64,000 bases of DNA from Marinicella sp. (GCA_965230295.1 OZ246001.1:2816001-2880000), one strand, 5' to 3'. Shown: positions 39,130-59,460, numbered from the stretch's first letter. The notes: generated by a model not told the origin, from the letters alone. Numbers and translations are program-made.

Positions 39130-39585
39130 CTGGTTGGGTTGTGTTGTACCTGGAGAACTGTCGGACAGTTCGACTGGCGCAGGTAATGAAAGCATGGTGG
39201 TTTACCTGAAAGGTAATAAGCCTTGCTTGAATACCGTAGCGCGTGCACTCGGTTAGGCAGATCATGTAAGAATGGCGATTTGACAAAGTCAAGAAGCCTT
39301 GATGGAATGATCGATAAGCCGTGAAGCCTTGCTGGTCGCTTCCGCATCCTGCTCACGCGACAGACCTACATCCCTGTAGGCCAGCCAGAGAGTGCAAGCC
39401 CGAAGTAGTAAGCCATGTCCGACGAGGCCGCTTTCACTTTTGTCAGGAATAGACATCCGAAGTGAGCAAACGCGAACTTGAGGTCAAATAAGAGTTAGAA
39501 GATGCTGGTTTTTTTGTGCAACAAAAAAGAAGGCATTTCTAACCATTCTCCAGAATGAAGTCCCAAGGACATTCATTATATAGTT
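39130..39585. repeat. Structured modular non-coding element, copy A
   Basis: Shares at least six modules with 58815-59460 in inverted orientation, e.g. 39250-39324 vs revcomp 59350-59424, 64/75 identical without gaps. Confidence 0.85.
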
Positions 39586-39689
39586 CGCAATGTCGGTTAA
39601 ATTTGTGACATCGGTTGTGCCTGTTTGAATGTTCTTTGGGTACTGCAATCTGTTATTATCATGTCATTGATGACCAAGATAAGGATACT

Positions 39690-40163
39690 GTGAGCACATT
39701 CCTACTCAATGCCAAAGCCAAAGAAAACACACAAAAATGTCTGCTCCGTGGGCTGTATGCAGTGTTGATGTTGGTGATTGGTCTGAATTCTTCTTTCAGC
39801 AAAGATGAGGACCAGAACCAACTCAGTCCAGTGGTTACAGTGACCAAAAACGCCTATCAGGCCTATGCGGTCCGGAAGCTGGTCATTGATGCCATCATGG
39901 CTACCCATGATGTGAGAACTCAATTGGTAGATCAATGGCATGCAAAGGGTCATTATGATGACAAGGCCATCAAAGGATTGATGGCTGGTCAATCGATCGA
40001 CACGGTCACCGGTGTGGTGACGATTGATCTGACAACAGTTTCTGGTGCTTTTCAGGAGGGTGATGTGGTTGCCTTACACCCTGAAAATGAAGCCGGTTTT
40101 TTTACTTGGCAATGTCGCAGCAATGTCAGTTCAAATAAGGTTCCTGGTTCATGTCAAAAATGA
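39690..40163 (+). CDS. Pilin-like protein lacking a canonical prepilin cleavage site
   Basis: RBS AAGGA + GTG; hydrophobic helix; TGVVTIDL...WQCRSNV...VPGSC resembles the C-terminus of 36323-38479. Confidence 0.6.
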   Translation: MSTFLLNAKAKENTQKCLLRGLYAVLMLVIGLNSSFSKDEDQNQLSPVVTVTKNAYQAYAVRKLVIDAIMATHDVRTQLVDQWHAKGHYDDKAIKGLMAGQSIDTVTGVVTIDLTTVSGAFQEGDVVALHPENEAGFFTWQCRSNVSSNKVPGSCQK

Positions 40164-40252
40164 CACACAAAAACACCCTTCTATGTGACTATCAACACTT
40201 ATTTTCATCCCAATACATTTGTTAAGATGATTAACTTTTTTTGAAGGGAGAA

Positions 40253-41884
40253 ATGATGAAAAAACTGTTGTTGTGCATGTTGGTTTTGGTTACGCAGGTT
40301 CAAGCCAGGAGTACCTCCAAACAAATTGATGAATTGTTGAATGGGTTGTTTGATAACAAGGGCCCTGGTGGTGTGGCACTGGTGGTCAAGGATGGCAAAA
40401 TCATTTATCGCAAGGCATTTGGGCTCGCCAATTTAGAACTGAATGTCAAGATGAAGCCAGACCACATCTTTCGCATCGGTTCTATCACCAAGCAATTCAC
40501 TGCTGTGGCCGTCATGCAATTGGTCGAAGCTGGTCAATTGGATTTGGATGCCGACATTACTGAGTACATCAAGGACTATCCCACCCATGGCCACAAAATA
40601 ACCATCAAACATTTATTGAATCACACCTCAGGCATCAAAAGTTATACAGGCATGTCCAAATGGGACAGTGAGGCGCGCAAGCGGGACTTCACCCCAACAG
40701 CGTTGATTGATTATTTCAAAGCTGAACCCATGGACTTCAGTCCAGGTGAACAATTTCGTTACAACAACTCAGGTTATGTTTTGTTGGGACACATCATCGA
40801 AGTGGTGTCTGGTGGAAGCTATGCAGAGTATATCAACAACAATATATTCAAGCCTTTGAAGATGGAGCGCTCATCCTATGGTTCCACTTCAAGAATCGTT
40901 AAAGACCGCGCTTATGGGTATGACCAAGTTGATGATACCTATAAAAATGCAGACTTCTTGAGCATGACACAGCCCTATGCCGCCGGATCATTGTTGTCCA
41001 CAGTGGATGATGTGCATACTTGGTATCAAGCCATCTTAAATGATGAACTGATCAGTGCAGAAAGTCGTGAACTGGCGCATGCCATGGGTGTACTTAATAA
41101 TGGAGAAAAAGTGGGGTATGGATTTGGTTGGAGCATTGGCAACATTCAAGGGACCCCTATGGTCGAACATGGCGGTGGTATCAATGGTTTTCTGACCGCT
41201 TCATTGGTGTTGCCAGAAGAAGATGTCTTCATTGCTGTATTCTCAAATTGTCTGTGTAATTATCCGGGTGATGTGGCCATGCAAATGGCCGGTATCGTGA
41301 TTGATAAACCTTTTGAATGGGAAAAGACCAGCCTGGAAGAATCCTTGATGGAATCTTATCAAGGGGTGTATGAAAAGACGGCTGATGATGTGCGGACATT
41401 GACTTATGTTGATGGGCAAATGTACTCATTGCGTTCTGGTGGCAGTAAGTATGCCATTCATCCTTTTGCCAAAGATCAGTTTTTCTTTGATGAAGGCACC
41501 ATGACTTTACAATTTAACCGTGATGATACCGGCCAAATCACTTCTGTGACATCAAAGAGTACAGGTCTGGATCAAACCTGGCTTTTGACTGACAAGCCAT
41601 TACCTACAGTGAATGCTGTTGCCATGGCTCCAGAGCTGTTCGCCACCTATGTGGGTAAGTATGAATTGGCGCCTGACTTTTACATCAACATATTTGCCGA
41701 AGATGAAGTCATGTATACCCGTGCCACCGGTCAGCAGAAAATTGAATTGATCGCTACATCAGACAATCAATTCACTTTGAAAGACACTGACATCAAACTC
41801 ACCCTGAACACCAATGAAAGTGGTGAAGTGTCCAGTTTGACCTTACACCAGAACGGCGATCATCAAGCCAAGAAGGTTGAGTAG
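40253..41884 (+). CDS. Serine hydrolase (class C beta-lactamase-like) with C-terminal DUF3471-like domains
   Basis: SITK (SxxK), LLNHTSG, YNN (YxN), HGGG; signal peptide. Confidence 0.9.
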   Translation: MMKKLLLCMLVLVTQVQARSTSKQIDELLNGLFDNKGPGGVALVVKDGKIIYRKAFGLANLELNVKMKPDHIFRIGSITKQFTAVAVMQLVEAGQLDLDADITEYIKDYPTHGHKITIKHLLNHTSGIKSYTGMSKWDSEARKRDFTPTALIDYFKAEPMDFSPGEQFRYNNSGYVLLGHIIEVVSGGSYAEYINNNIFKPLKMERSSYGSTSRIVKDRAYGYDQVDDTYKNADFLSMTQPYAAGSLLSTVDDVHTWYQAILNDELISAESRELAHAMGVLNNGEKVGYGFGWSIGNIQGTPMVEHGGGINGFLTASLVLPEEDVFIAVFSNCLCNYPGDVAMQMAGIVIDKPFEWEKTSLEESLMESYQGVYEKTADDVRTLTYVDGQMYSLRSGGSKYAIHPFAKDQFFFDEGTMTLQFNRDDTGQITSVTSKSTGLDQTWLLTDKPLPTVNAVAMAPELFATYVGKYELAPDFYINIFAEDEVMYTRATGQQKIELIATSDNQFTLKDTDIKLTLNTNESGEVSSLTLHQNGDHQAKKVE

Positions 41885-41897
41885 TTAATTCGCTATT

Positions 41898-41986
41898 GTC
41901 ATCCCGGACCCTGATCCGGGATCCAGCGTCTTTTGGAATGTAGGCGATATTCAAAGACACTGGATACCGGCCTTCGCCGGTATGAC
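41898..41986. repeat. Palindromic REP/RPE-like intergenic element
   Basis: GTCATCCCGGACCCTGATCCGGGATCCAG...CTGGATACCGGCCTTCGCCGGTATGAC: GTCAT/ATGAC ends with two internal hairpins. Confidence 0.7.
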
Positions 41987-42050
41987 GACCTTGGTTTAAG
42001 TATCATGATCTGTTTGATGTCTTTCAAACGCAGTCTTGAAAGAATAGATC

Positions 42051-42515
42051 TTATACCTTGAACAGGTCTCCTGCTTCATGTTGCAATAACCACTGTTTCC
42101 TTTCCAGTCCGCCAGCATAACCGGTTAAAGTGCCATTGGCCCCAATCACCCGGTGACAAGGGATGATGATGGAAATCGGGTTTTTACCATTGGCCGCCCC
42201 CACAGCACGGACAGCTTTGGGGTTGTTGATGGACTGGGCCATGTCTGAATAAGAGGCCACTTGTCCATATGCGATGGTTAACAAGGCTTGCCAAACCTGT
42301 TGTTGGAAGTCAGTGCCTTGTGGATCTAGTGGCAAATCAAAGTCTTTCCTTTGGCCAGCAAAGTAATCTGTTAACTGTTCTTTGGCCAGATCAGTGATCT
42401 TATTGGAATCGATGGGTTGGCGTTGTTCCTCAACAAAATAGACGCTGCGGATGCCTCGGTCTGTGGCCGTGATTTCTACCCAGCCTATGTCAGAATTTAA
42501 ATAATCGGTATGCAT
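42051..42515 (-). CDS. ogt: Methylated-DNA--protein-cysteine methyltransferase
   Basis: GTDFQQQVW, AVRAVGAANGKN, IPCHRV; start MHTDYL. Confidence 0.93.
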   Translation of the reverse strand: MHTDYLNSDIGWVEITATDRGIRSVYFVEEQRQPIDSNKITDLAKEQLTDYFAGQRKDFDLPLDPQGTDFQQQVWQALLTIAYGQVASYSDMAQSINNPKAVRAVGAANGKNPISIIIPCHRVIGANGTLTGYAGGLERKQWLLQHEAGDLFKV

Positions 42516-42516
42516 T

Positions 42517-43875
42517 TTATAATTGGCTCCAAAGTTGGAAGGTGAGGTAGCTGCGCCAAGGTGCAACTCGTTCTGGTTCTATGGCATGGCCTTTGATGGC
42601 TTTATCTACGCCCAAATCGCCTGCCAAAAAGATGTCGGGATCGCTCAATCCACGCAGTTTGGCATAGTTGATGGTCCAAGGCCCAATGCCTTTGATGTCG
42701 TGCCAGGTGTCTGGATCATTGGCATGTTCATGGTCAATAAAGTGGTGGGCCAAATCGCGAATCGTTTGTTTTCTGGCTCCTGGCATTTTTAAAAAATCCA
42801 GTTCACTGTTTGCAATGGCTGCTGGTGAGGGAAACCAATGTTGATCACCGCGTTGTTGCCCCAGATGTTCAACCACTTGAATGACCAGGTTTTTGGCGGC
42901 TGTTACTGAGATTTGTTGCCCCAAAATGGCCCGGATTCCAGCTTCAAAAACGGACCAGATTCCCGGGATTCTGAGACCACTGTGTAAAGTAAATCCGGAC
43001 GGTAATTGTTCTGCCAGATGGGTTTCGATGGTTTCGGTATCCGCGTCCAAGTCCAGCTGTCGCCGGATGTTGTTCAACACCCTGTGTAAATGCTTGAAAT
43101 CATGCAGTTGTAACTGAACTTCAAAAGCATTTTTCTCGGGTAAGTGTTTGGCCGTAAAGGCGCCTTGGGATTCAGCCAAAGCAAAAGTCCTGCCATAGTA
43201 ATCCGGGCCAATGGTTTCAAGTTGTGGTATCAAGCGCGCTTGCAAGAAGTTTTGTAAGCGTTGCCAGTCATAAGGTGGTCGATAAAACAATTTAATGCAG
43301 ATTTCATTGCTGGCTTGGTGACCGGTTTTACGGATTTCAGATGGCGTGAGTTTCATGGTTTTGATGAAACAATCATTGAACCGGCGCACACTGTTAAAAC
43401 CACTGGCAAATGCAATTTGATTGATGGGTAATTGGGTTTGATGTAACAACTGCTTTGCCATCAGACATTGTTGGTACAACACATAAGATTTGGGTGAAAT
43501 GCCCAGATGCTTGACGAACAGTTGCCTCAAGTACCGGTCGCTGACACCCAAATACTCAGCGAATTGATGCATCGATTGGTTTTCTAAACGGCCGGCATCA
43601 ATCAATTTGATGGCTCGTTGCAACAAGGCTTGACTGCCCATCCAAGCGGCTGATTGGGGAGCGCTGTCAGGACGGCAACGCAAACACGGTCTGAAACCTG
43701 CTGCAGCGGCTTGATAAGCCGAGGGGTAATAATCAACATTGGATTCTTTCGGTGGTGTGGCAGGGCAGATGCTGCGGCAATAAATGCCAGTGGTTTTTAC
43801 CGCAGTAAAAAAGCGGCCATCGAACCTGGCATCTCGTGATAATCTGGCTTTTCGACAAACTTCTTGACTGAGCAC
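42517..43875 (-). CDS. alkA: Ada Zn-binding/AraC + AlkA DNA-3-methyladenine glycosylase fusion
   Basis: AVKTTGIYCRSIC, GFRPCLRCRP, AraC HTH, RAILGQQISV, IKGIGPWT HhH. Confidence 0.9.
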   Translation of the reverse strand: MLSQEVCRKARLSRDARFDGRFFTAVKTTGIYCRSICPATPPKESNVDYYPSAYQAAAAGFRPCLRCRPDSAPQSAAWMGSQALLQRAIKLIDAGRLENQSMHQFAEYLGVSDRYLRQLFVKHLGISPKSYVLYQQCLMAKQLLHQTQLPINQIAFASGFNSVRRFNDCFIKTMKLTPSEIRKTGHQASNEICIKLFYRPPYDWQRLQNFLQARLIPQLETIGPDYYGRTFALAESQGAFTAKHLPEKNAFEVQLQLHDFKHLHRVLNNIRRQLDLDADTETIETHLAEQLPSGFTLHSGLRIPGIWSVFEAGIRAILGQQISVTAAKNLVIQVVEHLGQQRGDQHWFPSPAAIANSELDFLKMPGARKQTIRDLAHHFIDHEHANDPDTWHDIKGIGPWTINYAKLRGLSDPDIFLAGDLGVDKAIKGHAIEPERVAPWRSYLTFQLWSQL

Positions 43876-43963
43876 TGCTATAAATAAAATGATTGACTGG
43901 TCTTAATTGTAAGCCAAGTAAACGAATAAACCAGCCATTTTCGGAACTGAATTCGGTGGCTCT

Positions 43964-45055
43964 CTATTCGACAGATTTTGGCTGGTAGTTGATTTCTTCA
44001 GTTGTGGTAAATAATTGCCATAAACCAGGATCGATGTCTTTGAATAAAGCTTGAAAACGCAAGTTATCTGCGCTTTCATTGGTTACATTTCGGATTAAAA
44101 TTTGTTCTATTTGTTGCGGGAATTGTTGTTGTATCTTGGCATAAATTTCAGGGTCATACTCGCCACTGTCACCAACCAGGATGAATGTTCTGTTGGGATA
44201 CCTTGTTAGAATTTGTTTGATTTGTGGTGGCTTGGTTTCGGTGCTTTTGACAAACAGGTTTAACAAGCTGCTGTCCCTGAAACGAAAAGCTTTCAATGCA
44301 TAGTCTGCCATTGGAAAACCTTCTTTTTCAATGGCTGCTGAAAGGGCAGGATACAATTGCCATGGGCTTGATGAGACAAAGTGTAAAGCACCATCAGCTC
44401 GTAACCAGTGCCGGTACTTTTCAGCCATGCCTGGCACCAAAGCAAAGTCTTTGTAGAATGTGTTGTACAGCAATTGCTTGCGATCAGTCACGCTGGAAAT
44501 CTTGATGGTGTCATCAATGTCACTGATGATTGATACGCCATGCGGGTCGATTAAACTGACATGACCGGTGAATACTCGGGTATCGCCATCAGCCAATACA
44601 GCTTCAAAGGTCAGTTGAGCGGTCTTGGTGGCTGTTTGCATGACATCGGCATCCACCGATAAAACCCGTGAGAAATGACCATTTTCTGCCGATTCAGGTA
44701 TGGCATAAGTCCTGTCAGCAAAGCGGATGACAACAGTTTTACCCCGTTCATTGTCTGCCAGTAAGGCATTGACTCGATGATCAAAGTTCCGTTGATTATC
44801 GGGAGAAACCTCCAATCCATACGTGGTTTCGAGGGCCGATTGAATCAAGGCTTTTCTGACTTTAGAGTCTTCTGCTTCAAAGACCCAACCATGAATGGGC
44901 ACCTGCCATTGATTGCTGTCCTGGTTGAACCAAGCACTGGTGTTGAAGAAGACCAAGGTTTCATCAGATTTTAATTCGCTCACTGGGCCCGCCAACAATG
45001 CCTGGGTTGCCAACATGAATAGTAATGTGCCTATGAGGTTCAGTCTTTGTTGCAT
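43964..45055 (-). CDS. App1-family phosphatidate phosphatase-like protein (DUF2183)
   Basis: ISDIDDTIK, FVSSSPWQLY, LVGDSGEYDPEIY; signal peptide. Confidence 0.85.
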   Translation of the reverse strand: MQQRLNLIGTLLFMLATQALLAGPVSELKSDETLVFFNTSAWFNQDSNQWQVPIHGWVFEAEDSKVRKALIQSALETTYGLEVSPDNQRNFDHRVNALLADNERGKTVVIRFADRTYAIPESAENGHFSRVLSVDADVMQTATKTAQLTFEAVLADGDTRVFTGHVSLIDPHGVSIISDIDDTIKISSVTDRKQLLYNTFYKDFALVPGMAEKYRHWLRADGALHFVSSSPWQLYPALSAAIEKEGFPMADYALKAFRFRDSSLLNLFVKSTETKPPQIKQILTRYPNRTFILVGDSGEYDPEIYAKIQQQFPQQIEQILIRNVTNESADNLRFQALFKDIDPGLWQLFTTTEEINYQPKSVE

Positions 45056-45238
45056 GGGTTCAAAAGTTTCCAAGGTTAAATTCTGTGTTCATTATCGCAG
45101 CTTTGAGGCCAGGGTCAATCTCAGAATAGTTGAACCACTTTGCAAAATTGAGTGTAGCCATAAATTTGCCACAATAAAACATTTTATCAACACAATAATT
45201 AAATATACTGAAGACTGATTTATAACGATTGAACAGCA

Positions 45239-48200
45239 ATGAAAAAATTAGCATTAGGGTTGATATTTGGTTTCTTGATGGCTTGTGGCGGTGAAGATTC
45301 TAAGCAAGTGACACAGGAAGAAGGACAAACAAAAGGAGCGCAAGTTCAAAGCAAAGAAGGTGATTCTGACAGCCGTCAGACACAGACATTTGACTCCGCC
45401 GTCCAAGGGACCACAACTTTCAAACTGCTGAGCATCTCTGAAGGCATTTTTGAAAACACCAGTGCACTGCAAATCAATTTCAATTTGCCGGTCAAGCCAA
45501 ACCAGGACTTCGAGCAATTGATCAGAGTCACCAGTCAAGGCCAATTGGTCAAAACAGATTGGGTCTTCAGTGACAATCGGATGGCCATGTACTTTCCTTT
45601 CATTGATGCCAGTACTGAATATGAAATCAACGTCAGCCAATCTCTGAACAGTGCGGGAAACAAGATGTTGACCCAAGCTTCAAAAGTCAATTTAAAGACC
45701 CAACCTTTGAAAAAGTCCGCACGGTTTATTTCTACAGGAAACACCTTGTTGAGTACCGACGAAGACTTACCCATCGAAGCGGTTAACGTGGATGCTGTTG
45801 AACTCAAATTCTGGCGCATTAATAACCAGCACATGCATCGTTTTTTACAAAATCCCAACAAAAAAGACATATATAACCTACAAAAAATGACTGAAGTGGC
45901 TGAGCTGGTTTTCACCAATCATTACGAACTGGATGAGGTCAAGAATAAAATTGAAAGTCATAATTTACCGATAGACCAGATCCAGGCAATCAAACCTTCA
46001 GGCATTTATTTTGTCACCATGATGCCAGATGATGCTTCTTATGAATATCAATACGAATCGACCTGGTTTATCCAGACAGATCTGGGCTTACACACCCGCG
46101 TTTATCAAAGTTCGGTGGCTGTTTTCACCCACCAATTACCTGCAGCAAAAGTTTTTCCTGATGTGCAGATTCAATTGTTTGATAACAAAGGCAACGAGGT
46201 GGCCAATGCAACCACCGACCAACAAGGGTTTGCCTCCCTGGATTACAGTCAAAGCAAGCAATTGAATTTTGTGTTGGCCCAGGCTGGCGACTCGATCAAC
46301 TTGGTGAGACTGAAACAGCCCAAGTTGGACCTGTCTGAGTTTGGTTTGGCCAAACGCAGGTACCAACAACAGGAATTGTTTTTATATGCCCCAAGAGACT
46401 TGTACCGACCAGGAGAAACCGTTCATATCAACGGTTTGTTGCGTGATGAAGATGGTCAAATGGTCACCTCTACCCCGATACACGTTGACATCAGGCGGCC
46501 TGATAATCGCTTGTTTAAAACCTTCAAATGGCAAGGTGACGCATTGGCGTTTTATCAATCATCATTCACCATTCCGAGTGATGCCATGACGGGAACCTGG
46601 ACCTTCAATGCCGTGGTGGCCAACAACAACAGTTTCAACTACGAATTGCAAATCGAGGATTTCTTGCCTGAACGGTTAAAGCTGGCATTATCAACAGGCA
46701 ATGATTCAAAACAAGTGCCGGTAGAACAAGCACCCATCATCAACATCCAAAGTGATTATTTATATGGAGCTCCGGCGGCTGGTAATCGATACGATGCCAC
46801 GGTTACGGTCAGCGCTTCCACCAAACTTTTTGATACCTATGAAGACTACCACTTTGGTTCCAATCATTACACCAGTTATGACAACAACTTCACCACAGAT
46901 GCGAGTGAATTGAATGACTCCGGATTTGCCGCTTTGGCCTTGCCAATCAAATGGCAGAACACCCAATTTCCGCTGAAAATCAATACCCATGTGAATGTAT
47001 ATGAGGCGGGTGGCCGGCCTATTTCAAGAAGTGTACAACAAACCGTGTGGCCACAACCGATGGCTGTGGGTATCAAGCCCATGTGGGATGGTCGTTTTGC
47101 CAGTCCCAACAAAGCCAACGCAGTTTCATTACTGGCAGTTAACCAGGCCGGAGAACAGATCGCCCTGAAACGCGCAGAAATCATGCTGATCCAGGAAAAC
47201 CGTGAACGGTATTGGCATTGGGGCGATGATGGCTGGGGGTATCGAAACAACAGTCAGGAAGTGCCCGTATACAATGCCGTGGTCAACCTGGCACAAGACG
47301 CTGAGTCACTGGTTTCACTGCCCCTGGATTATGGCATGTACCGAGTGGAAGTTCGAACACAGGATCAGCAATTGATTTCCAGTTACCGTTTTTTCTCAGG
47401 ATGGCGTTGGTATGATCCCTACGCTTACCGGGGTGAAAAACCAGATCAAGTCAAACTGGCTTGGCAAGCCGATGATTGGGTGCCTGGTCAACAAGCTGAG
47501 CTACTGGTGACGGCACCTTATGCAGGTACCGCTTTGATCACCGTAGAAAGTGATGAACTGCTGTGGCACCAAAGCATCGAAATGTCTTCTGCAGAAGAGT
47601 TGATCAAGGTCCCAATTGACAGTCAATGGCGGCGTCATGACCTTCATGCCAGCGTCATGGTGATTCAATCCGGGTCAGGCAACAAAGACCGCAATCACCT
47701 GCCCAGGCGTTCGATGGGGGTCATTCACCTCCCACTGAATCGCAGTGACAGAAAACTGTCTATGGAATTGCAGCACCCTGAAAAAACGTTGCCTGATGAG
47801 CCGGTTCAAGTTACGGTCAAATTGACACAGTTTGATGCCAAGCAAAACACCTTTGTGACCTTGGCAGCGGTAGACACAGGGGTGTTGAATGTCAGTCAAT
47901 TCGAAACGCCTAAACCCTTTGAGTGGTTTTTTGCCAAACGCCAATACCTGCCAGCCTTACGCGATGTTTATGGTTCATTGATTGCGATGATTGAAGCCAA
48001 ACAAGCACAACAGAAATTTGGTGGTGATGCAGACATCAGCAGGGGGGGAGATGAAGCCAAGGCAGATGTTCAAATCGTCTCGATATTCACCGACAAAGTC
48101 GCCTTTGACCCAAATGGTGAAGCCAGCATCGAGCTACAGTTGCCGTATTTCAATGGTGAATTGCGTCTGATGGCAATGGCCTTCAATGAACAACAGTTTG

Positions 48201-52542: not shown

Positions 52543-52697
52543 TTTCGTACGGCTTTTTATACACTTCACAATTAATTTGATCTAATTTTCTCTTTTTGCG
52601 TTACTTTTATTGGTAACCACGGTTTCCGCCAATAAGATAGATTGATACAACATTCATTACTGACGGGAGACCACTTATTTTTTCTGATAACCACATC

Positions 52698-53237: not shown

Positions 53238-54066
53238 AGACACCCATAAATCACCCAGTTCACATCAAGAGCTGGAGTTACTCATGATGGACTACCTGTC
53301 TGGAAGGATGAGTCAGGAAGAAGCCGACAATTTTGAACTGATCATTGCTGACAATCCCCAGTACAGTCAGGAATTGGTTGAACTGCAACAAATGATGTCC
53401 TTGATTGACCAACACAACCAAACAGAAATCCCTGAACCATCGGCGCAAATGGATGAAAATTTCTATGCCATGTTGCATGAAGCGGTGCGCGAAGAATCGC
53501 AAAACTCAAGTGGCTGGTGGCAGTCAATCACCGCATGGTTTCAGTTACCACAGGTGCGAAAGGTTTCTTATGCCTTCAGCTTTTTGGTGGTGGGCGTGTT
53601 TATGGGGCATTACATGCACCTCCTGAACAACCAATCAGATATAGAAGCTGAACGCCTGGCGATTAAAGACCAACAAATCCAAGCCTTAACGGTGTTGTCA
53701 TTATTGGACATGCCATCTGCCAACAAGAGATTGATGGCGGTCAATCTGGCATCCATGACCGAGCAGCCCAATGAGGCCATATTTGAGGCTTTGTTAACTA
53801 CATTGAAACAAGACAGCAACACCAACGTGCGGCTTGAAGCACTTGATGCGCTGGCTCAACACACGAACATTCAAGCAGTGAGAACCGGTTTGGTGGCCGC
53901 CATCAACCAACAAACTTCACCCATGGTACAAATTGCCATGGCCAATTTAATGCTTAACCTGAATGAAACTGAAGCCGTAGGACCCATCAGGGAACTGCTG
54001 CAACAACCCGACTTGATCGAGCCAGTGAGGAGTGAATTGAATGAAGCACTCATTGAGCTGATTTAA
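53227..54066 (+). CDS. Anti-sigma-like membrane protein with HEAT repeats
   Basis: N-terminal anti-sigma-like helices, one TM, D.NTNVRL.AL.AL HEAT motif; overlaps the sigma gene. Confidence 0.8.
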   Translation: MSHKDTHKSPSSHQELELLMMDYLSGRMSQEEADNFELIIADNPQYSQELVELQQMMSLIDQHNQTEIPEPSAQMDENFYAMLHEAVREESQNSSGWWQSITAWFQLPQVRKVSYAFSFLVVGVFMGHYMHLLNNQSDIEAERLAIKDQQIQALTVLSLLDMPSANKRLMAVNLASMTEQPNEAIFEALLTTLKQDSNTNVRLEALDALAQHTNIQAVRTGLVAAINQQTSPMVQIAMANLMLNLNETEAVGPIRELLQQPDLIEPVRSELNEALIELI

Positions 54067-54080
54067 TCCAGGAGAACATA

Positions 54081-54995
54081 ATGAGAAATTTAACCAAAGC
54101 CACAATTCTAATCAGCGCAGCCCTGTTGATGAGCACATCTGCTCAAGGGGTCAAAAAAATAATGGGCCAGATCAAACAATCTGAACAAATCTATGAAACC
54201 ATGCGATTTACAAATCAGCACGAAGACAATCAAGTCACCATTTTCAATGTTTATGGTTCGATTGATGTGGAAGGGTATGCTGGTGATGAAATTGAAGTTG
54301 AAGCCGTGAATCAGGTGTATGGCAAGTCGCAATCGGTGGTTGATCAGGGCTTGAAAGAGATTGGCCTTAATTTTGAACAGCACGGCAAAAGAATTTATAT
54401 TTACCTGGATTCACCTTTCACATATTTTGTTCCGGAAAGTGGTGAATTGTGGCACAGTGATACATGCTGGCGTCGGGATGATTGCAGCCGTAAACATGAG
54501 AAGAAGGCCTATAAATATCGCCTGGATATCAAGGTAAAGTTACCAAAAGAACTGAGCATAAAAGTATCAGCCATCAACAATGGTGACATCACTATATCAG
54601 GTGTTCATGGCAAAAATCTGAACATCAGTAACATCAACGGCGCCATCGATATGGTAGATGTTTCCGGACAAACATTTGTCAATGCAATCAATAAAGACAT
54701 CAACATCGCATACAGCGAAAACCCGACTGCAGATTCAGAATTTGAATCTATCAACGGTGATTTAAACATCACCTTTGCTGGTCAGCCCAATGCCGAGGTG
54801 GTTTATAAAACCATGCACGGTGATTTTTACACCGTTTATGACGTCAGTATGATGGCGCCTGTGGTGAAGCGAACCAGCAAGCAAAACAAACATGGCATTC
54901 ATTATAAATTAGACGCCGAAAGCCGACTGCAAGTGGGCAATGGTGGTCCTGAATACAGATTCAGAACCCTCAACGGTGACATCAAAATCAAATAA
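54081..54995 (+). CDS. DUF4097 / putative adhesin beta-solenoid protein
   Basis: Signal peptide; repeated S/N-I-N-G-D-I units. Confidence 0.8.
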   Translation: MRNLTKATILISAALLMSTSAQGVKKIMGQIKQSEQIYETMRFTNQHEDNQVTIFNVYGSIDVEGYAGDEIEVEAVNQVYGKSQSVVDQGLKEIGLNFEQHGKRIYIYLDSPFTYFVPESGELWHSDTCWRRDDCSRKHEKKAYKYRLDIKVKLPKELSIKVSAINNGDITISGVHGKNLNISNINGAIDMVDVSGQTFVNAINKDINIAYSENPTADSEFESINGDLNITFAGQPNAEVVYKTMHGDFYTVYDVSMMAPVVKRTSKQNKHGIHYKLDAESRLQVGNGGPEYRFRTLNGDIKIK

Positions 54996-55008
54996 CATCA
55001 GGAGTAAC

Positions 55009-55842
55009 ATGATGAAAAGAAAAACAACAACGAACACTGCATGGGCTGTTGCCATGAGTTTAATCGCCACGGTCTCGCTGGCTCAGAATAACGATGAGTT
55101 GAGAGAAGAAATCGTGATTCCACTGAGCAACCCCGATGAAGTGGGGACATTGGAAGTGAATCAAATCTATGGTGGCATGAAAGTCGTTGGTTACGATGGT
55201 AAAGAAGTTATCGTGGTGGCCAAACAAAAGAAAATGCAATCAACTGTGAAGATGAAAAACGGCTTGCGCAGAATTAACAACAATTCAATGGCACTTGAAG
55301 CAGAAGAATCTGACAACTTTGTTGAAGTGAGCGCACAAACCTACAGTGGTGGCAAAGACACCATGAACCTGGAAATCAGGGTCCCAAAAAATTTCAACTT
55401 GCACCTGAGTAGCATCAATGACGGTGACATTTTAGTAGAAAACATCAATGGCGAACTGGAAATCAGTAATGTGAATGACAACATCACCCTCAACCAGGTT
55501 TCAGGTTCTGCAGTAGTGGATTCAGTCAACGGTTTGATCAAGGCCAATTTCAATGCAGTGACCCCGGGTTCAAAATTGGTGTTCACCAGTTTTAATGACG
55601 ATGTGGATCTGACCTTGCCTGGTAGCGTCAAAGCTGATTTCAAATTACAAACAGCCTATGGTGAAATATATACTGGGTTTGACATTGAGTTTGATACCTC
55701 GGAACCTGTGATTGAAAAGGATAACCGAGAAAAGTCGTACAAAGTCAAGATAGAAAAGTGGGTATCCGGGACTGCCAATGGGGGTGGAACAGAAGTGGTA
55801 TTGAAATCACACTCGGGAGATTTAATCGTCAGATCCAAATAA
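55009..55842 (+). CDS. DUF4097 / putative adhesin beta-solenoid protein
   Basis: RBS AGGAG, signal peptide, repeated S-V/I-N-G/D units. Confidence 0.8.
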   Translation: MMKRKTTTNTAWAVAMSLIATVSLAQNNDELREEIVIPLSNPDEVGTLEVNQIYGGMKVVGYDGKEVIVVAKQKKMQSTVKMKNGLRRINNNSMALEAEESDNFVEVSAQTYSGGKDTMNLEIRVPKNFNLHLSSINDGDILVENINGELEISNVNDNITLNQVSGSAVVDSVNGLIKANFNAVTPGSKLVFTSFNDDVDLTLPGSVKADFKLQTAYGEIYTGFDIEFDTSEPVIEKDNREKSYKVKIEKWVSGTANGGGTEVVLKSHSGDLIVRSK

Positions 55843-55860
55843 ACCTCCCAAGTTCGCATG

Positions 55861-55890
55861 AAGCTGCTGGCATGTACCAGCAGCTTTTTT
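55861..55890 (+). terminator. Intrinsic terminator
   Basis: AAGCTGCTGG-CATGTA-CCAGCAGCTT followed by a T-run. Confidence 0.85.
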
Positions 55891-56212
55891 ATGTGGTCAC
55901 TTTAACTGCTGTGCCACTGACACTGACCATCATCATAGAGCCGGTATCACCGATCACCTCATAATCGATGTCGATACCGACGATGGCGTTGGCACCCAAT
56001 TGACTGGCTTTATCTTGCATTTCCTGGAATGCGACTTCACGGGCCTGGCCCATTTCCTTTTCATAGGCACCTGATCGTCCGCCAACAATGTCGCGAATTT
56101 TACCGAATAAGTCGCGAAAAATATTGGCGCCTAAAATGGCTTCTCCGACAACAATGCCTTTGTAATCTGTGATTTGATGTCCTTGTAAATCTGGGGTGGT
56201 ACTGATAATCAA
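55889..56212 (-). CDS. YbjQ/UPF0145 family protein
   Basis: [28 protein letters not shown]; TTG start with RBS AGGAG. Confidence 0.9.
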
Positions 56213-56320
56213 TGTTAACTCCTGTTGCTTAAATAATCAGCATACAGGAATAACCTTCAATTCGAAAATGTCAGAAGTCACAGATTGTTTGGTCAGTGAT
56301 GTGGCGATGAGGGTGGTGAG

Positions 56321-56353
56321 AAAAAAGGCCGCCAGTTAAACTGTGCGGCCTTT
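56321..56353 (-). terminator. Intrinsic terminator of the small ORF 56361-56507
   Basis: Minus strand AAGGCCGC...GCGGCCTTTTTT. Confidence 0.8.
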
Positions 56354-56360
56354 AGGGAGG

Positions 56361-56507
56361 TCAGTGTTTGGTATGTATCAGTTCTTTGAAGAATTTCAGC
56401 CAGCTTTTTTTGTATGCCCGCTTATTATCTCGGTAAGCAGGAAAGGGGCTGAAAACTTCTAAACTGTCATCCACACTGTTGTGGGGGTTGACGTTTTTTA
56501 TATTCAT
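56361..56507 (-). CDS. Small 48-aa protein not in the ORF track
   Basis: MNIKNVNPHNSVDDSLEVFSPFPAYRDNKRAYKKSWLKFFKELIHTKH; RBS CAGGTG and own terminator. Confidence 0.6.
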   Translation of the reverse strand: MNIKNVNPHNSVDDSLEVFSPFPAYRDNKRAYKKSWLKFFKELIHTKH

Positions 56508-56753
56508 AAATCACCTGTTTGGTTACTTATGACGCTCATTTTAAGCAAATAAATAGAGTAAACCACCCAATCTGATGTTGCCGCTGATGTAACAATTTTT
56601 GACACATGTCACACTTTACTGACTCTGATGACCGTTTTTTACTTAAATTTTGATGTATTTACATAAAAGTACATTCCAAATCATTGTCTAGGACTGATCA
56701 GATGATTATGCTGAAGCCATCAACTATGTTCAATGTATGCCGGAGATAAGTAA

Positions 56754-57155
56754 ATGTTTGAGTACCATGGGTGGATCGCCATTAAATTTAAATCAGAGAA
56801 AGGTGATAAAAAAGATGACGAGTCATTGGAGCAGATCAGAAAAATTAAAGCTTTGATTGATAAGTATTCAGAAAAAGTGGCCAAATTTGAAATTTTCTAT
56901 CAAATGGGCAAACCCTTTGTCAGATTAGATGGGTGTTTGTCTCACTATCAAGGATGGGTGCTTAAGTTATTTTTCGCCATTGCTAAACTGGCCAATAACA
57001 GTGAAGGCATCTTGTTTATTCAGGATGAAGACAATCCGTTCTTAAACAGCCGATTCCGTATATGGCAAATGATGGAAGGTGAGGTTTTATCAGGTGACAT
57101 GACCTTTTTCCCGGACATATGTAATCCAGTTCATAATGGACAACATGCTGCATGA
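56754..57155 (+). CDS. Imm7-like polymorphic-toxin immunity protein
   Basis: MFEYHGW start, G..SH, S.G.L...DED, F..W....G pattern; RBS GGAG. Confidence 0.6.
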   Translation: MFEYHGWIAIKFKSEKGDKKDDESLEQIRKIKALIDKYSEKVAKFEIFYQMGKPFVRLDGCLSHYQGWVLKLFFAIAKLANNSEGILFIQDEDNPFLNSRFRIWQMMEGEVLSGDMTFFPDICNPVHNGQHAA

Positions 57156-57200
57156 ATGGTTTAAGTATTCTTTGATCAATTAAGGCGGCTGGCTCATCAA

Positions 57201-57407
57201 ATGCAAAAAGGACAAACATTATTACAACAAGTGATTGATGAGAATCATGCATCAAGCAACAGTGAACGCATTTTGTTGAGAGATAAGATGAAGCAAATAC
57301 AAACTGAAATGGTTAAATTGACTTTTGAAGCTGAAATGGACAAACGGTTGTTTTCATTTTTCTCAAAACAATTGAAGAAGGTCAAAAAACAGCTGTCATT
57401 GTTGTGA
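57201..57407 (+). CDS. Hypothetical coiled-coil protein, possibly a remnant
   Basis: 68 aa K/E/L-rich ORF, weak RBS. Confidence 0.35.
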   Translation: MQKGQTLLQQVIDENHASSNSERILLRDKMKQIQTEMVKLTFEAEMDKRLFSFFSKQLKKVKKQLSLL

Positions 57408-57521
57408 CTGATGGAGTGATTAATCAGTCCATCTTCCTTATACAATCAAATAACGCATAACAACGTGGTTTTGCTGCCGTTGGGTGGTTTGAAACTATGA
57501 GGGGGACTTGGTAAAGAGAAA

Positions 57522-57606
57522 TGGTGCCGAGGGCGAGAATCGAACTCGCACTTCCGAAGAAACCGGATTTTGAATCCGGCGCGTCTACCAATTCCGCCAC
57601 CCCGGC
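57522..57606 (-). tRNA. tRNA-Leu(CAA)
   Basis: GCCGGGGTGGCGGAATTGGTAGACGCGCCGGATTCAAAATCCGG...GAGTTCGATTCTC...CACCA; anticodon CAA, long variable arm, encoded CCA. Confidence 0.97.
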
Positions 57607-57820
57607 ACAAGGTTGACAAGTATATAAGATTTTTCCTTGATGGCAAGTGATTTTTGTAAATATCTGATAATGTTTCCAGGTCATTGGTTAAATTTTCATT
57701 CATCCATTTCACCAGTGACCATTTTTCGAATATTTAGCGCTTGAAATCGATTGAATAATTAAGATTCGTCCTTAGTTTAACTGTGGAAAATAATAACCAT
57801 AACAGCTTTAGGAGTATGCC

Positions 57821-58135
57821 ATGCAAGTACAAGTCAATACCGATCACCATGTCAAAGGTGGTGATTTATTGCAGAAACATGTAGAAAATTTATTGAATGA
57901 TGTTTTACACAGTTTTAAAGATCAGGTAACCCGTGTTGAGGTCTATATAGCTGATGAGAACAGTCACAAAGGAGGTGATGATGACTTGCGCTGTACCATG
58001 GAAGCCAGAATTCGTGGTTTGAAACCCATTGCCGTAACCCACCATGCTGACAACATCAATGTCGCCATTGATGGTGCTGCTGATCGAATCACTCGTTCAA
58101 TCAGAAAGACTGTGGAGAAAAGAAGGGAAGCCTGA
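57821..58135 (+). CDS. HPF/RaiA-family ribosome-associated protein
   Basis: MQVQVNTD, ITRVEV-like, DENSHKGG.DD.RC.MEAR..G..P.AVTH. Confidence 0.85.
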   Translation: MQVQVNTDHHVKGGDLLQKHVENLLNDVLHSFKDQVTRVEVYIADENSHKGGDDDLRCTMEARIRGLKPIAVTHHADNINVAIDGAADRITRSIRKTVEKRREA

Positions 58136-58137
58136 GC

Positions 58138-58174
58138 TAAAAAAAAAAGAAACCAGCTGATTCAGCTGGTTTCT
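58138..58174 (-). terminator. Intrinsic terminator of dps, possibly bidirectional
   Basis: A-run followed by AGAAACCAGCTG-ATT-CAGCTGGTTTCT. Confidence 0.8.
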
Positions 58175-58199
58175 CAAACTCATCAAAGGGTTGCGCCAT

Positions 58200-58667
58200 T
58201 CAGCCCAATAAAGAGCGCAACATCCAGGCATTTTTCTCATGGAAGTCCATTCTTTGGGTTAACAAATCGCCGCTGACTTCATCAGTTTCTATGGCTTCGG
58301 TTTGTAACAACTCCCTGGCGTGACGGATGATGATTTCATGTGAATCCAGCAAATTTTTCAGCATCTCTTCTGCTGCGGGCACAGCAGATTCTTCTTTGAT
58401 GGCAGTTAATTCCGCGAAAGCCTGGTATGAACCTGGTGCAAATTCACCCAAAGCCCTGATGCGTTCTGCGATCACGTCCACAGCCAAGGCCAGTTCGGTG
58501 TACTGTTCTTCGAATAAAGTGTGCAATGATGTGAACATGGGGCCAGTCACATTCCAATGGTAATTGTGGGTTTTCAAATACAAAGTGTATGTATCTGCCA
58601 GCAATCGGCTTAAGCCAGCCACAATCACGCCTCGATTTTCTGTGTTGATTCCAATATTTATACTCAT
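58200..58667 (-). CDS. dps: DNA starvation/stationary phase protection protein
   Basis: LYLKTHNYHWNVTGP.F..LH.LFEEQY, D.IAERI, HEK.AWML. Confidence 0.95.
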   Translation of the reverse strand: MSINIGINTENRGVIVAGLSRLLADTYTLYLKTHNYHWNVTGPMFTSLHTLFEEQYTELALAVDVIAERIRALGEFAPGSYQAFAELTAIKEESAVPAAEEMLKNLLDSHEIIIRHARELLQTEAIETDEVSGDLLTQRMDFHEKNAWMLRSLLG

Positions 58668-58698
58668 TTTAAGCTCTTGATGTTTTAGATTGACAACC

Positions 58699-58755
58699 AT
58701 TTTAAGGGTCAACTAGGAACTTGTAAATTTGAGTTATTTGATTGATACAATCTAT
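58699..58755 (-). promoter_or_regulatory. Probable OxyR-type site plus sigma70 promoter of dps
   Basis: Minus strand ATAG-N7-CAAT-N13-TTTACA-N17-TAAAAT. Confidence 0.6.
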
Positions 58756-58814
58756 TAAATAGAATGATGATCTGCTTGTGATAACAAAACAAGAATGCTG
58801 GTCTTTGATAAGCG

Positions 58815-59460
58815 TCTATAGTCAAGGAATGTTCTTGGGGCTCCATTCTGGTTCATGGTCTGACAGGTCTTCATATTTGCTGCGCAAATAAACCGACCTT
58901 TACAGACTATTGTTTGAGCAGTTGCTTCGCACTGCATGTCTGTTCCAAACAAAAGTGAAAACGACTGCTTACATGGATGTAAGTATGCAGCGATAGCAGG
59001 CAGGAATTGTTCCCAACAGTTCTCTGCATTCACCCCGTCCTGGGGATCGATGCGGTAGCTGCCGAGGCGAACATGACTTGCTACCTCGCACGCACTACGG
59101 CATTCAAATCGGGCTTCTTTATCTTCGATAAAACCGCCCAACTTTCATTACCTGTGCTATAACGCCATTCACATAAGGTTTCTTGACTTCGTCAAATCAC
59201 CATATGTTCATTGGCTATTCTCTTCGCCTCTGATTGGCTTACATGGAAGTAAGTCCTCTGAGGAGGCAGGATGCCGGTATCAGAGGTGACTACATGGATG
59301 TAGGTCTGCCGCGATAGCAAGGAGCGATAGCGGCCGCAACATCAATAGCTCACGGCTAATCAATCATTACATCAAGGCTTATTGACTCCGTCAAACCGCC
59401 ATGATTGCATGATTTGCCTAACCGGCTCGGCGGGTCAAGCTGCTCAGCAGCTTTCCTTTC
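58815..59460 (+). ncRNA. Structured modular non-coding element, copy B; candidate long ncRNA with CsrA/RsmA-type GGA hairpins
   Basis: TATAGT at 58817-58822, five GGA-loop hairpins on +, terminal hairpin AAGCTGC-TCA-GCAGCTT plus pyrimidines; homologous to 39130-39585. Confidence 0.6.

Follow-up and report, generated by a model that had tools for sequence, protein, structure and literature searches.

Two long intergenic regions in a 64,000-nucleotide stretch of Marinicella DNA (the window) share blocks of sequence in opposite orientation, and we wondered what kind of element they represent. The original prediction described them as two inverted copies of a structured element at 39130-39585 and 58815-59460. 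The two copies are real, but these limits had to be corrected to 39152-39577 on the plus strand for copy 1 (426 nt) and 58824-59456 on the minus strand for copy 2 (633 nt). The limits were set by repeat coverage, which reached the single-copy level abruptly at both edges, and those of copy 1 also by end profiles. On recounting, the ungapped identities claimed for the two regions proved exact, at 64/75 for 39250-39324 against the reverse complement of 59350-59424, 50/70 for 39177-39246 against that of 59088-59157, and 22/25 for 39432-39456 against that of 58936-58960; the terminal hairpins found in both regions are also 22/25 identical. Searching the genome by blastn with copy 1 gave 79 matches at E ≤ 0.01, and copy 2 was matched at E values of 9e-23 and 2e-11, so the similarity is far above chance. 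A GAGAACTGT hairpin pair taken for another shared module turned out not to be homologous (12/19 identical), the hairpin being 5'-terminal in copy 1 and internal to an optional module in copy 2. The order of the shared modules differs between the copies: the 70-nt module precedes the 72-nt one in copy 1 and lies about 200 nt behind it in copy 2.

Copy 1 is a complete element of a diverged subfamily B, starting with GGAGAACTG and ending with CATTCATT, and is flanked by a hypothetical gene (38534-39097, minus strand) and a pilin-domain gene (39615-40163, plus strand). Copy 2 is a complete element of the long form of subfamily A. It begins 7 nt past the stop codon of an FGE-sulfatase-domain gene (59464-61350, minus strand) and lies upstream of a ferritin/Dps-like gene (58200-58664, minus strand). 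Besides copy 2, the genome has ten long copies of 567 to 633 nt, mostly 94 to 97% identical. The features of the two copies are as follows.

39152-39174, plus: copy 1, 5'-terminal hairpin P1 (GGA, AACTGTC/GACAGTT stem, GAC), from the module map
39177-39246, plus: copy 1, optional hairpin module Z, 70 nt, apical motif GGTGGTTT..GAA..AAGCC (50/70 identical to 59088-59157, minus)
39250-39321, plus: copy 1, optional hairpin module X, 72 nt (64/75 identical to copy 2 over 39250-39324)
39365-39379, plus: copy 1, small palindrome CCTACATCCCTGTAG, from the module map
39405-39421, plus: copy 1, GTAG box and 5' arm of long-range helix P3 (ATGTCC)
39432-39464, plus: copy 1, start of the long-form P4 hairpin (22/25 identical to 58936-58960, minus)
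39553-39577, plus: copy 1, 3'-terminal segment with the P3 3' arm (GGACAT), end TTCATT
59434-59456, minus: copy 2, 5'-terminal hairpin P1 (GGA, AGCTGCT/AGCAGCT stem, GAC)
59353-59424, minus: copy 2, module X, from identity to copy 1 and the module map
59290-59304 and 59238-59254, minus: copy 2, two further small palindromes, from the module map
59159-59219, minus: copy 2, module Y, 61 nt, apical motif as in module Z around a TGAC-GAA-GTCA hairpin
59088-59157, minus: copy 2, module Z, from identity to copy 1 and the module map
59068-59084, minus: copy 2, GTAG box and P3 5' arm (ATGTTC)
58968-58984, minus: copy 2, small palindrome ACTTACATCCATGTAAG, from the module map
58824-58848, minus: copy 2, 3'-terminal segment with the P3 3' arm (GAACAT), end TTCCTT

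The proposal that the two regions belong to a genome-wide family held up. The 4.0-Mb host genome contains 93 interspersed, non-coding elements of at least 100 nt. End profiles matched 69 5' ends and 113 3' ends; 66 of the 69 5' ends could be paired with a 3' end, giving discrete sizes of 148 to 633 nt, and no element longer than 633 nt was found in this genome when ends were paired within a 6-kb span. All copies have a common core of 149 nt. The larger forms, of 215 to 633 nt, consist of this core plus optional hairpin modules related to each other, and since the modules are placed at some five fixed points in loops or at junctions, the core pairings survive. Fragments and head-to-tail arrays of elements are also present. 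Of the other 23 Marinicella genomes, 20 carry the family, on which blastn and the core model agree, with up to 75 copies (0 to about 75 per species across the genus); 17 genomes from outside the genus have none. Searches of phages and plasmids gave no match, and no long copy carrying a gene was seen in the host genome, G019, G021, or 80 stretches of metagenome sequence. We are confident that both regions are copies of a genus-restricted, non-autonomous, non-coding family of hairpin-rich interspersed repeats, built from a 149-nt core plus modules, with a compensated fold, and that the elements have moved. It is a new BOX/BIME/MITE-like family of unusual anatomy.

In the core fold, the 5' GGA pairs with the 3' TCC. 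P1 is a terminal hairpin, P2 is a helix, and P3 is a long-range helix that encloses the hairpin P4. As single strands, both copies fold much better than shuffled sequences (z = −4.75 for copy 1, equaled by 0/100 shuffles; z = −4.17 for copy 2, equaled by 0/20). The pairing-preserving changes listed in the original prediction (TTACCT-GAA-AGGTAA versus TTTATC-GAA-GATAAA, GCGC/GCGC versus GCAC/GTGC, and GATCAT/ATGATC versus AATCAT/ATGATT) are present in the sequence, and the selection on the fold that it proposed was borne out against shuffled and slid controls alike. In an alignment of 29 sequences from 17 genomes, 96.3% of cells were paired, versus 85.5% in shuffles, and both sides had changed in 23/37 pairs, versus 12.9 ± 1.7 in shuffles (0/500 reached 23) and only 4 to 8 in slid controls. 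These compensatory substitutions keep the fold both within the genome and between species. The P1 stem of copy 1, for example, is compensated relative to that of subfamily A (AGCTGCT/AGCAGCT) and to those of other species. The P3 arms of copy 1, ATGTCC/GGACAT, are complementary and covary with those of copy 2, ATGTTC/GAACAT; ATGCTC/GAGCAT also occurs in this genome, and other species add GTGTTC/GAACAC, ATGTCT/AGACAT, and ATGCTG/CAGCAT. P3 is fully paired in 73 of 84 elements, in all size classes.

The two strands are not equivalent. The consensus fold energy is −41.5 kcal/mol for the top strand and −32.9 kcal/mol for the bottom strand, in P3 a G.T wobble is carried on the top strand by nine elements and an A.C by one, and two wobble pairs in P2 are conserved in 29/29 and 27/29 sequences. 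Outside P3 the asymmetry, tallied from the alignment, is modest (about 21 G.U versus 13 A.C). The internal-loop motif GGCGGTTT..AAGAAGCC is found again at L177:2000-2580, where three unrelated hairpins upstream of a gene have it as their cap.

Such a fold could belong to multicopy structured small RNA genes or cis-acting RNA elements, with 5' GGA and 3' CCUU as the paired mature ends. The strong covariation, including conserved G.U pairs, the pairing of the two ends, the better fold of the top strand, and the placing of optional hairpins at loops, much like the expansion segments of structured RNAs, all fit this reading. We nevertheless consider it quite unlikely. As anticipated, no Rfam family was matched: with Rfam 15 at gathering thresholds, the sole match in the whole window was a tRNA at 57525-57606, and the two regions gave chance-level matches only (E values of 8 to 9.5) at E ≤ 10. 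No conserved promoter was found inside the element, the TTGACC of subfamily A being TCGACC or ACGACC in other species, and the upstream flanks of the copies are unrelated to each other. If transcribed, 72% of the copies in the host genome would run head-on to replication. Presence and absence differ between species, and mobile DNA typically shows the sharp ends on both sides, the fragments, and the head-to-tail arrays seen here.

The evidence for movement comes from comparing loci. Element positions are not conserved between species, and the orthologous site of copy 2 is empty in five relatives (G003, G015, G007, G023, and G021), the intergenic DNA of which is too diverged for the empty sites to be aligned base by base. 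Because loci that are unrelated to each other carry near-identical copies, and these five relatives lack copy 2 at its orthologous site, we conclude that the elements have moved. This insertion polymorphism between species supports the reading as a mobile element.

The element ends are fixed and asymmetric, GGAAAGCTGC... and ...AACATTCCTT, with complementarity limited to GGA/TCC and no terminal inverted repeats beyond it, and each end is highly conserved across species. Among 70 insertions inspected there was no target-site duplication; the left flank was variable (C-N-N-N), the right end was constant (CCTT), and the right flanks were unrelated. The last four element bases are C in 93, C in 83, T in 90, and T in 85 of 93 elements. 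A C stands at −4 of the left flank in 52/70 elements here and in 16/23 in other species, followed by positions −3 to −1 that are A/T-rich only, and the left flank looks like the element's own 3' end. One element directly abuts a remnant resembling the 3' end of another copy. Classical MITEs derived from a DDE-type IS, with inverted repeats decayed to GGA/TCC and a duplication too short or degenerate to see, would likewise be small, lack an ORF, fold tightly, occur in many copies, and have weak GGA..TCC end complementarity. Decay of terminal inverted repeats is unlikely, however, given that the two ends differ from each other and that both have stayed highly conserved between species. Together with the lack of flanking duplications, an element GC content of 48% that exceeds the 44% of the genome, and the lack of a longer same-ended copy in the complete genome, this makes a MITE origin very unlikely.

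We also considered host-domesticated structural DNA or RNA signals like REP/BIME, ERIC, or BOX, which would serve as 3'-end stabilizers, attenuators, or sites for nucleoid or topology proteins; the fold would be kept for a host function, and a mobile origin would be compatible. The elements lie near stop codons (median, 25 to 45 nt) and far from start codons (112 to 121 nt). Core copies are 80 to 89% identical between species versus 65 to 77% for flanking genes, and on the opposite strand P1 followed by the T-rich flank scans as terminator-like; like the recurrence of the internal-loop motif on the three L177 hairpins, these points favor a host signal. A transcript-level role would favor one orientation, though, and orientation relative to neighboring genes is even (25/24/24/20). 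Copy number ranges from none to about 75 within one genus, positions are not conserved, and we know of no protein partner for the elements. On balance, we regard a host signal as unlikely.

If the repeats are mobile, some enzyme would have to move them. The original prediction left a choice between a non-autonomous mobile element and the template of a trans-acting enzyme; the first is favored, and the second found no support. Templates or products of a reverse transcriptase (retron-, DGR-, or SINE-like retroposed RNAs) would explain why the sharp ends match the limits of a closed, RNA-like fold. This possibility is close to refuted: the single-contig, 97.9%-complete host genome has no RVT_1 (PF00078) match despite its many near-identical copies, and the elements have no A-rich tail and no duplication. 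None of the other suggested partner genes was found to go with the family either. TnpB domain and IS110 searches gave no match in the host genome, the IS91 Y2 transposase (PF04986) was found only in G022 among 24 genomes, and TopIB was found only in G007. The only Y1 HUH gene in the host genome is RAYT-like (L031:1300-1863; NF047646 below the cutoff, PF01797 above it). It is flanked by GACTTCAGTC-type REPs, a different family of about 30 to 40 copies, and evidently serves those rather than the present elements. Orthologues of it are limited to G023, G003, and G012, and Y1_Tnp had no match in G019, G021, or G016, which carry 75, 74, and 21 elements; having its own REPs and lacking co-occurrence across the genus, it was rejected as the mobilizer. 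Eight tyrosine-recombinase matches look like XerC/D, two P4-type integrases, a three-gene cluster, and a FimB-like gene; the last, the sole one profiled, does not track the elements.

Taken as a whole, our best explanation is a genus-restricted mobile repeat family spread by single-strand cut-and-join with an enzyme acting in trans, which we hold with moderate confidence; the single-strand, strand-specific mechanism taken alone is a tentative proposal. The even gene orientation and the lack of a conserved internal promoter point to the DNA level over the RNA level, and the better top-strand fold, the G.T excess in P3, and the conserved P2 wobbles point to one folding strand. We infer that spread may proceed by strand-specific cutting and joining on the folded single strand written 5'-GGA...CCTT-3'. 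One recognition would define both where the element stops on its 3' side (..TTCCTT^) and what it targets (..C-N-N-N^), and the resulting insertion would have no inverted repeats, no duplication, and a left flank like its own 3' end. This would be the logic of HUH single-strand transposons (IS200/IS605, IS91) or of a single-strand site-specific recombinase, and the putative enzyme would not be among the usual suspects. The host probably tolerates the elements chiefly a short way downstream of genes. The failure to find an enzyme or a gene-carrying long copy speaks against the mechanism, as does the modest wobble asymmetry outside P3, and replication-strand bias may do so too. With ori placed from GC skew and dnaA, the host genome shows a 67:26 bias (P = 2.5e-5) in which the folding strand is the leading-strand template, the opposite of the preference of IS608. 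The bias was not repeated in G001, G002, G014, and G023 (24:22 of 46), for which we used a local-skew proxy that had agreed with the replichore assignment for 93/93 elements in the host genome.

Several known systems resemble the family in part. ERIC, Correia, and Bacillus cereus bcr1-type repeats are also orphan interspersed repeats with stable predicted structures; they affect co-transcribed genes, and for most of them we know of no transposase. As generally described, they are single-module imperfect palindromes of 100 to 160 bp with inverted ends, Correia elements having a TA duplication, whereas the core of the Marinicella family is branched and has a long-range helix, and its modules can be interchanged. 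With REP/BIME/REPIN sequences it shares hairpin-based repeats, mosaic clusters, the lack of duplication, and a short conserved motif ahead of a terminal hairpin (GGA/GGAG here; GTAG in E. coli REPs). The host genome has a RAYT-like gene, as in REP/RAYT systems, but no cognate RAYT is flanked by the present elements, and Y1_Tnp is missing where they are richest. The elements are also much larger than REPINs, asymmetric, and not inverted REP doublets. They differ from retron, DGR, and other RT-templated elements in the missing PF00078 match, and from IS91 derivatives in the restriction of Y2 to one of 24 genomes; the head-to-tail arrays are not mechanism-specific.

Compared with IS200/IS605 elements and PATEs, as covered in PMC3201880 and PMC5027513, the family is similar in that inverted repeats and duplications are missing, insertion occurs 3' of a short flank motif, and one folding strand is indicated; like PATEs, it has subterminal hairpins, P1 for the 5' end and P3/P4 for the 3' end. 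In place of the PATE tetra- or pentanucleotide target there is only the C at −4, then A/T-rich sequence, and, unlike in those systems, no TnpA or TnpB goes with the elements. PMC3049150 gives BOX elements of Streptococcus pneumoniae (boxA-boxB(n)-boxC) as 67 to 637 bp long, with terminal inverted repeats and target-site duplications. The Marinicella elements are like BOX in their genus-level distribution, about 100 copies, lack of an ORF, intergenic location, tight folding, and similar size range, and in having fixed terminal and variable internal modules. They differ in lacking inverted terminal repeats and duplications and have no sequence relation to BOX, and their modules are inserted in a conserved core fold, whereas those of BOX are strung between two end boxes.

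The source genome (G000) is a single contig of 4,008,074 bases with 44% G+C, in which the window spans G000:C1:2816001-2880000. The original prediction held that the window carries two dispersed, inverted copies of one structured, covarying element. Two elements were indeed found: a recount gave exactly the module identities first reported (64/75, 50/70, and 22/25), with the terminal hairpin likewise at 22/25, while the limits originally proposed, 39130-39585 and 58815-59460, proved too wide when judged by the edges of repeat coverage. Searching the source genome by blastn, we obtained 136 and 160 alignments for the two regions, and repeat coverage fell from 20- to 70-fold within the elements to 1 within a few bases of both edges.

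Copies in the window (limits from repeat coverage and end profiles)
39152-39577, + strand: copy 1, 426 nt
58824-59456, − strand: copy 2, 633 nt

The expectation that neither region belongs to a known RNA family held: Rfam returned only tRNA over the whole window, and at E ≤ 10 both regions gave only chance-level matches. Neither region contains a convincing ORF, the frames there being extensions of neighboring genes or short. Both copies fold well beyond their shuffles (z = −4.75 for copy 1 and −4.17 for copy 2). Copy 1 lies directly upstream of a pilin-domain gene (39615-40163, + strand), and copy 2 lies upstream of a ferritin/Dps-like gene (58200-58664, − strand), with an FGE-domain gene on its other side; the adjoining copies may influence expression of the pilin-domain and Dps-like genes. 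Short-read contigs from four runs in Logan ended at element edges, and their internal joints fitted other module combinations; none of these contigs bridged an empty site. Short-read assemblies of Marinicella are broken by the elements. A tRNA gene lies at 57525-57606 of the window (− strand; RF00005, 60.4 bits), and contigs from many organisms stack there.

We then counted the family genome wide. End profiles found 69 5′ ends and 113 3′ ends in the source genome, and 66 of the 5′ ends had a same-strand 3′ partner. The paired ends fell into discrete size classes of 148, 172, 196-220, 235, 268, 299, 355, 375-397, 419, 433-452, 484-499, 535-578, and 601-633 nt, with no longer element within the 6-kb span searched from each 5′ end. 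Counted from the 3′ ends, 93 elements were 100 nt or longer; of the 113 anchors, 16 marked smaller fragments and 4 belonged to a tandem array, and these 20 were excluded. The family extends genome wide, as predicted, with further copies in relatives. At least three variants of the 5′ hairpin occur side by side in this genome.

The shortest complete form, present in 11 copies, is a 149-nt core in which the 5′ GGA is paired with the 3′ TCC (RNAalifold). Longer forms consist of this core plus optional hairpin modules inserted at about five positions.

Helices of the core and positions of the modules
P1, core 5′ end: terminal hairpin, 7 bp
P2, core: helix
P3, core: long-range helix, ATGTTC with GAACAT
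P4, nested in the core: hairpin, 9-11 bp
Module positions: inside P2; P2 tip; between P2 and P3; inside P3; P4 tip

Several modules are interrelated, sharing an internal-loop motif, GG(C/T)G(A/G)TTT / AAGAAGCC, around a short variable stem that is mostly closed by C-GAA-G. One module can occupy several positions: a 70-nt module is 5′ proximal in copy 1 and precedes the GTAG box in copy 2. Away from the window, at L177:2000-2580 (G000:C1:2499500-2500080, − strand), three long hairpins 117 to 145 nt apart lie upstream of small ORFs. They share the modules' internal-loop/apical cap (GGCGGTTTGAC..GTCAAGAAGCC) on unrelated outer stems, which suggests that the internal-loop/apical motif is itself a recognized unit; the ORFs adjoining these hairpins pointed to no binding protein.

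We looked across 23 other genomes of the genus and 17 genomes that fall outside the genus but within its taxonomic family and order to determine how far the repeat extends. The 633-nt query matched 20 of the 23 and none of the 17. Likewise, a covariance model built on the 149-nt core found full-length cores in 20 of the 23, with 75 in G019, 74 in G021, and 39 in G023, and gave no match in G003, G010, and G013; core hits across the genus number about 450. G003 has matches to modules where core matches are absent. Public records containing the 3′-end motif came from the genus Marinicella, and blastn found no similar DNA in phage and plasmid collections. Two viral contigs carrying a 20-nt pattern were judged chance matches because the core model did not recognize them. 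Cores from other species were 80 to 89% identical to the main subfamily of the source genome, subfamilies within that genome were 72 to 74% identical to one another, and protein-coding DNA beside the elements was 65 to 77% identical between species. Among the matches listed, the literature on Marinicella repeats held no account of genomic repeats. This is a new family, confined to one genus and related in kind to the small interspersed repeats of bacteria. Such repeats are common, and a mobilizing enzyme is known for few families; to our knowledge, still fewer have tested evidence of a selected fold.

Selection for the fold was assessed in an alignment of 29 cores from 17 genomes. Changes on both sides occurred in 23 of 37 predicted pairs, against 12.9 ± 1.7 in shuffles; 96.3% of cells were paired, against 85.5 ± 0.6%; and 106 cells were doubly changed, against 26.3 (0 of 500 shuffles reached any of these values). 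The shuffle test is inflated by relatedness among the sequences. A control free of that, in which the 3′ partners were slid by 1 to 3 columns, gave only 37 to 44% pairing and 4 to 8 doubly changed pairs. The covariation first proposed from two copies therefore exceeds both shuffled and slid controls.

The long-range helix provided an independent check within the source genome. Its arms were fully paired in 73 of 84 elements of all sizes (9 of the 93, in which the GTAG box was not located, were left out); in the 633-nt form they are separated by up to about 240 nt. It covaries in at least six versions, among them ATGTTC/GAACAT (57 elements), ATGTCC/GGACAT (7), ATGCTC/GAGCAT (2), ATGCTC/GGGCAT (2), and ATGCCC/GGGCAT (1).

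Folding energies and wobble pairs were used to compare the strands. With RNA parameters the consensus folded at −41.5 kcal/mol on the top strand (written 5′-GGA...CCTT-3′) versus −32.9 on its complement, and with DNA parameters at −19.8 versus −18.9; taken singly, 17 of 27 sequences (RNA) and 20 of 27 (DNA) folded better on the top strand, the poorly aligned cores G005a and G012a being left out here and kept in the covariation counts. Two wobble pairs in P2 were retained in 29 of 29 and 27 of 29 sequences. P3 on the top strand had G·T in 9 elements and A·C in 1, and the remaining sporadic wobbles outside P3 showed a modest excess, about 21 G·U versus 13 A·C in the 29-core table. We predict with moderate confidence that the top strand is the folding strand.

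The ends of the elements exclude the classical cut-and-paste route. Beyond GGA/TCC there are no terminal inverted repeats, and none of 70 inspected insertions had a target duplication. The left flank has C at position −4 in 52 of 70 cases in the source genome and 16 of 23 in other species; positions −3 to −1 are rich in A/T. The element itself ends in CCTT (C in 93, C in 83, T in 90, and T in 85 of 93 at the last four positions), followed by an A/T-rich flank. From these counts, the left flank, ..t-t-C-w-t-t^, looks like the 3′ end of the element itself, TTCCTT^. Directly before one element lies a 14-nt remnant resembling the 3′ end of another copy. The genes flanking copy 2 are adjacent in G003, G015, G007, G023, and G021, with gaps of 35 to 157 nt versus about 700 to 860 nt in the source genome, in intergenic DNA too diverged for base-level alignment of the empty site; G004 and G008 carry other DNA at the orthologous position. 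Judged from gene order, copy 2 is an insertion. Long copies are mostly 94 to 97% identical to copy 2, which points to recent spread.

The elements are intergenic and lie near stop codons (median distance, 45 nt for the 5′ side and 25 nt for the 3′ side; 16 of 48 within 10 nt) but far from start codons; the medians to the latter, 112 to 121 nt, are approximate because genes were called crudely as longest ORFs. Mobility may be overlaid by a host function like that of REP/BIME or BOX elements, and both the placement just past stop codons and the high conservation between species are compatible with it. Orientation relative to the two neighbors is even (25 same/same, 24 opposite/opposite, 24 convergent, and 20 divergent). 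That the elements are RNA genes is a less likely reading.

Orientation relative to replication was uneven in the source genome. With the origin placed near 1.70-1.72 Mb by dnaA and by the minimum of cumulative GC skew, and the terminus near 3.84 Mb, the top strand lies on the lagging-strand sequence, that is, the leading-strand template, in 67 of 93 elements (binomial P = 2.5e-5). The bias held in subfamilies A (40/55), B (9/12), and C (3/4) and in the others (15/22), in every size class, and in both gene orientations. A compositional cause was rejected because most top strands fall on the lagging strand despite being G rich (skew +0.09). A local-skew proxy over ±10 kb agreed with the replichore assignment of all 93 elements. 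By this proxy, four relatives (G001, G002, G014, and G023) split 24:22 (50 core matches, 4 dropped for weak skew). We therefore treat the bias as a property of the source genome only and rest no mechanism on it.

Strand-specific cut-and-join on folded single-stranded DNA would best fit four properties of the elements: asymmetric ends without duplication, a left flank that mimics the 3′ end, a wholly conserved fold with one strand favored, and an orientation indifferent to transcription. HUH single-strand transposons and single-strand site-specific recombination at integron attC sites follow such logic.

We searched for an enzyme that might do this. Of the partners originally suggested, the source genome has no reverse transcriptase (RVT_1) match and no TnpB-type domain; nor does it have an IS110 transposase. 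A RAYT/HUH enzyme, also suggested, failed as well, since the lone Y1 gene evidently serves other REPs at its flanks and does not co-occur with the elements. This gene encodes 187 amino acids at L031:1228-1930 (G000:C1:1669189-1669891), has HVHLL and YIKYN motifs, scores above the PF01797 cutoff, and has its best match, below cutoff, to the NCBIfam model for REP-associated tyrosine transposases. The palindromes at its flanks form a different family, GGAGCG-TYGAC-TTCA-GTCRA-CGTT (..GACTTCAGTC..); its 10-nt core occurs at 41 sites in the source genome, frequently in inverted pairs, and about 30 of the sites have the full REP context. Orthologs occur only in G023, G003, and G012, and Y1_Tnp had no match in the element-rich genomes G019, G021, and G016; RAYT and all Y1_Tnp proteins were therefore rejected as the mobilizer.

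Other candidates were likewise set aside. An IS91-type Y2 transposase was found in G022 only. TopIB, examined because the 3′ end TCCTT resembles the poxvirus topoisomerase site, was found in G007 only. Among the tyrosine recombinases, the one profiled across genomes, a FimB-like protein of 196 amino acids (L126:1432-2019; G000:C1:3732716-3733303), does not follow the elements in its distribution. Its copies in G023, G001, and G002 are 93%, 89%, and 78% identical to it in protein, much more than genes of these species usually are, which suggests recent horizontal transfer. Elsewhere in the source genome, three tyrosine-recombinase genes stand in a row at L129-L131 (G000:C1:3776396-3780193), encoding 413 amino acids, a TAG-bearing fragment, and 316 amino acids; the row resembles a "recombinase in trio" element.

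No autonomous copy lies within 6 kb of any 5′ end in the source genome. End patterns in G019 and G021, which miss variant ends, gave only short pairings where both ends were listed, and at least 23 of 80 metagenome stretches hold elements, all short among the matches listed. If a mobilizing function still exists, it would act in trans from a gene without element ends.

A fuller but improbable version of the cut-and-join reading makes the family the substrate of an undescribed single-strand DNA mobilization system. A trans-acting enzyme would recognize the whole branched fold of one strand instead of a pair of inverted ends; it would be neither a Y1/Y2 HUH enzyme, reverse transcriptase, TnpB, IS110, nor TopIB, and might come from the host. 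Both the target and the TTCCTT terminus of the element would be cut behind C-N-N-N, and the interchangeable hairpin modules, with their conserved internal loop GGCGRTTT / AAGAAGCC, would offer the same protein repeated docking sites.

Among known systems, BOX elements, summarized as modular, 67 to 637 bp long, and having inverted ends and duplications (PMC3049150), are closest in architecture, being alike in modularity and size range, but the Marinicella elements have neither inverted ends nor duplications. REP/REPIN elements need a cognate RAYT, a requirement that fails here. Derivatives of IS200/IS605, as described in abstracts (PMC3201880 and PMC5027513), are alike in the logic of their ends but not in enzyme. 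Since the defining features of these three systems are not fully present, we filed the family as a new structured, nonautonomous interspersed repeat. It is an unusually clean case, with 93 dated-looking copies in a complete genome and 20 further species, a compact 149-nt core with a covarying long-range helix, modules that behave like expansion segments, and a demonstrable absence of the usual enzymes from the genomes richest in elements. These features, with the ends, open two questions to direct test: what mobilizes orphan structured repeats, and whether their fold is read as DNA or RNA.

Several atypical arrangements were also seen. In G018, the module region matched at 50- to 60-nt offsets at G018:C19:594441-594705 (L042:1453-1717) and G018:C11:688108-688332, as if these were coreless tandem module arrays. 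A diverged relative at L178:1226-1650 (G000:C1:761725-762150) has an interior of about three tandem 110-nt units, each with one module-like hairpin. At G000:C1:1312990-1313480, a head-to-tail array of at least four units (period, 122 nt) repeats a short diverged element lacking the 5′ hairpin, with two RAYT-family REPs just upstream. Two 25-nt minimal derivatives (G000:C1:902118-902138 and 1199637-1199657) consist of nothing but the 5′ hairpin followed directly by TCCTT or TCCTA and may be excision footprints or internal deletions. Finally, the element at G000:C1:3334657-3334786 carries a 28-nt piece of the 3′ region (GACCTGTCAGACCATGAACCAGAATGAA) four times in tandem.
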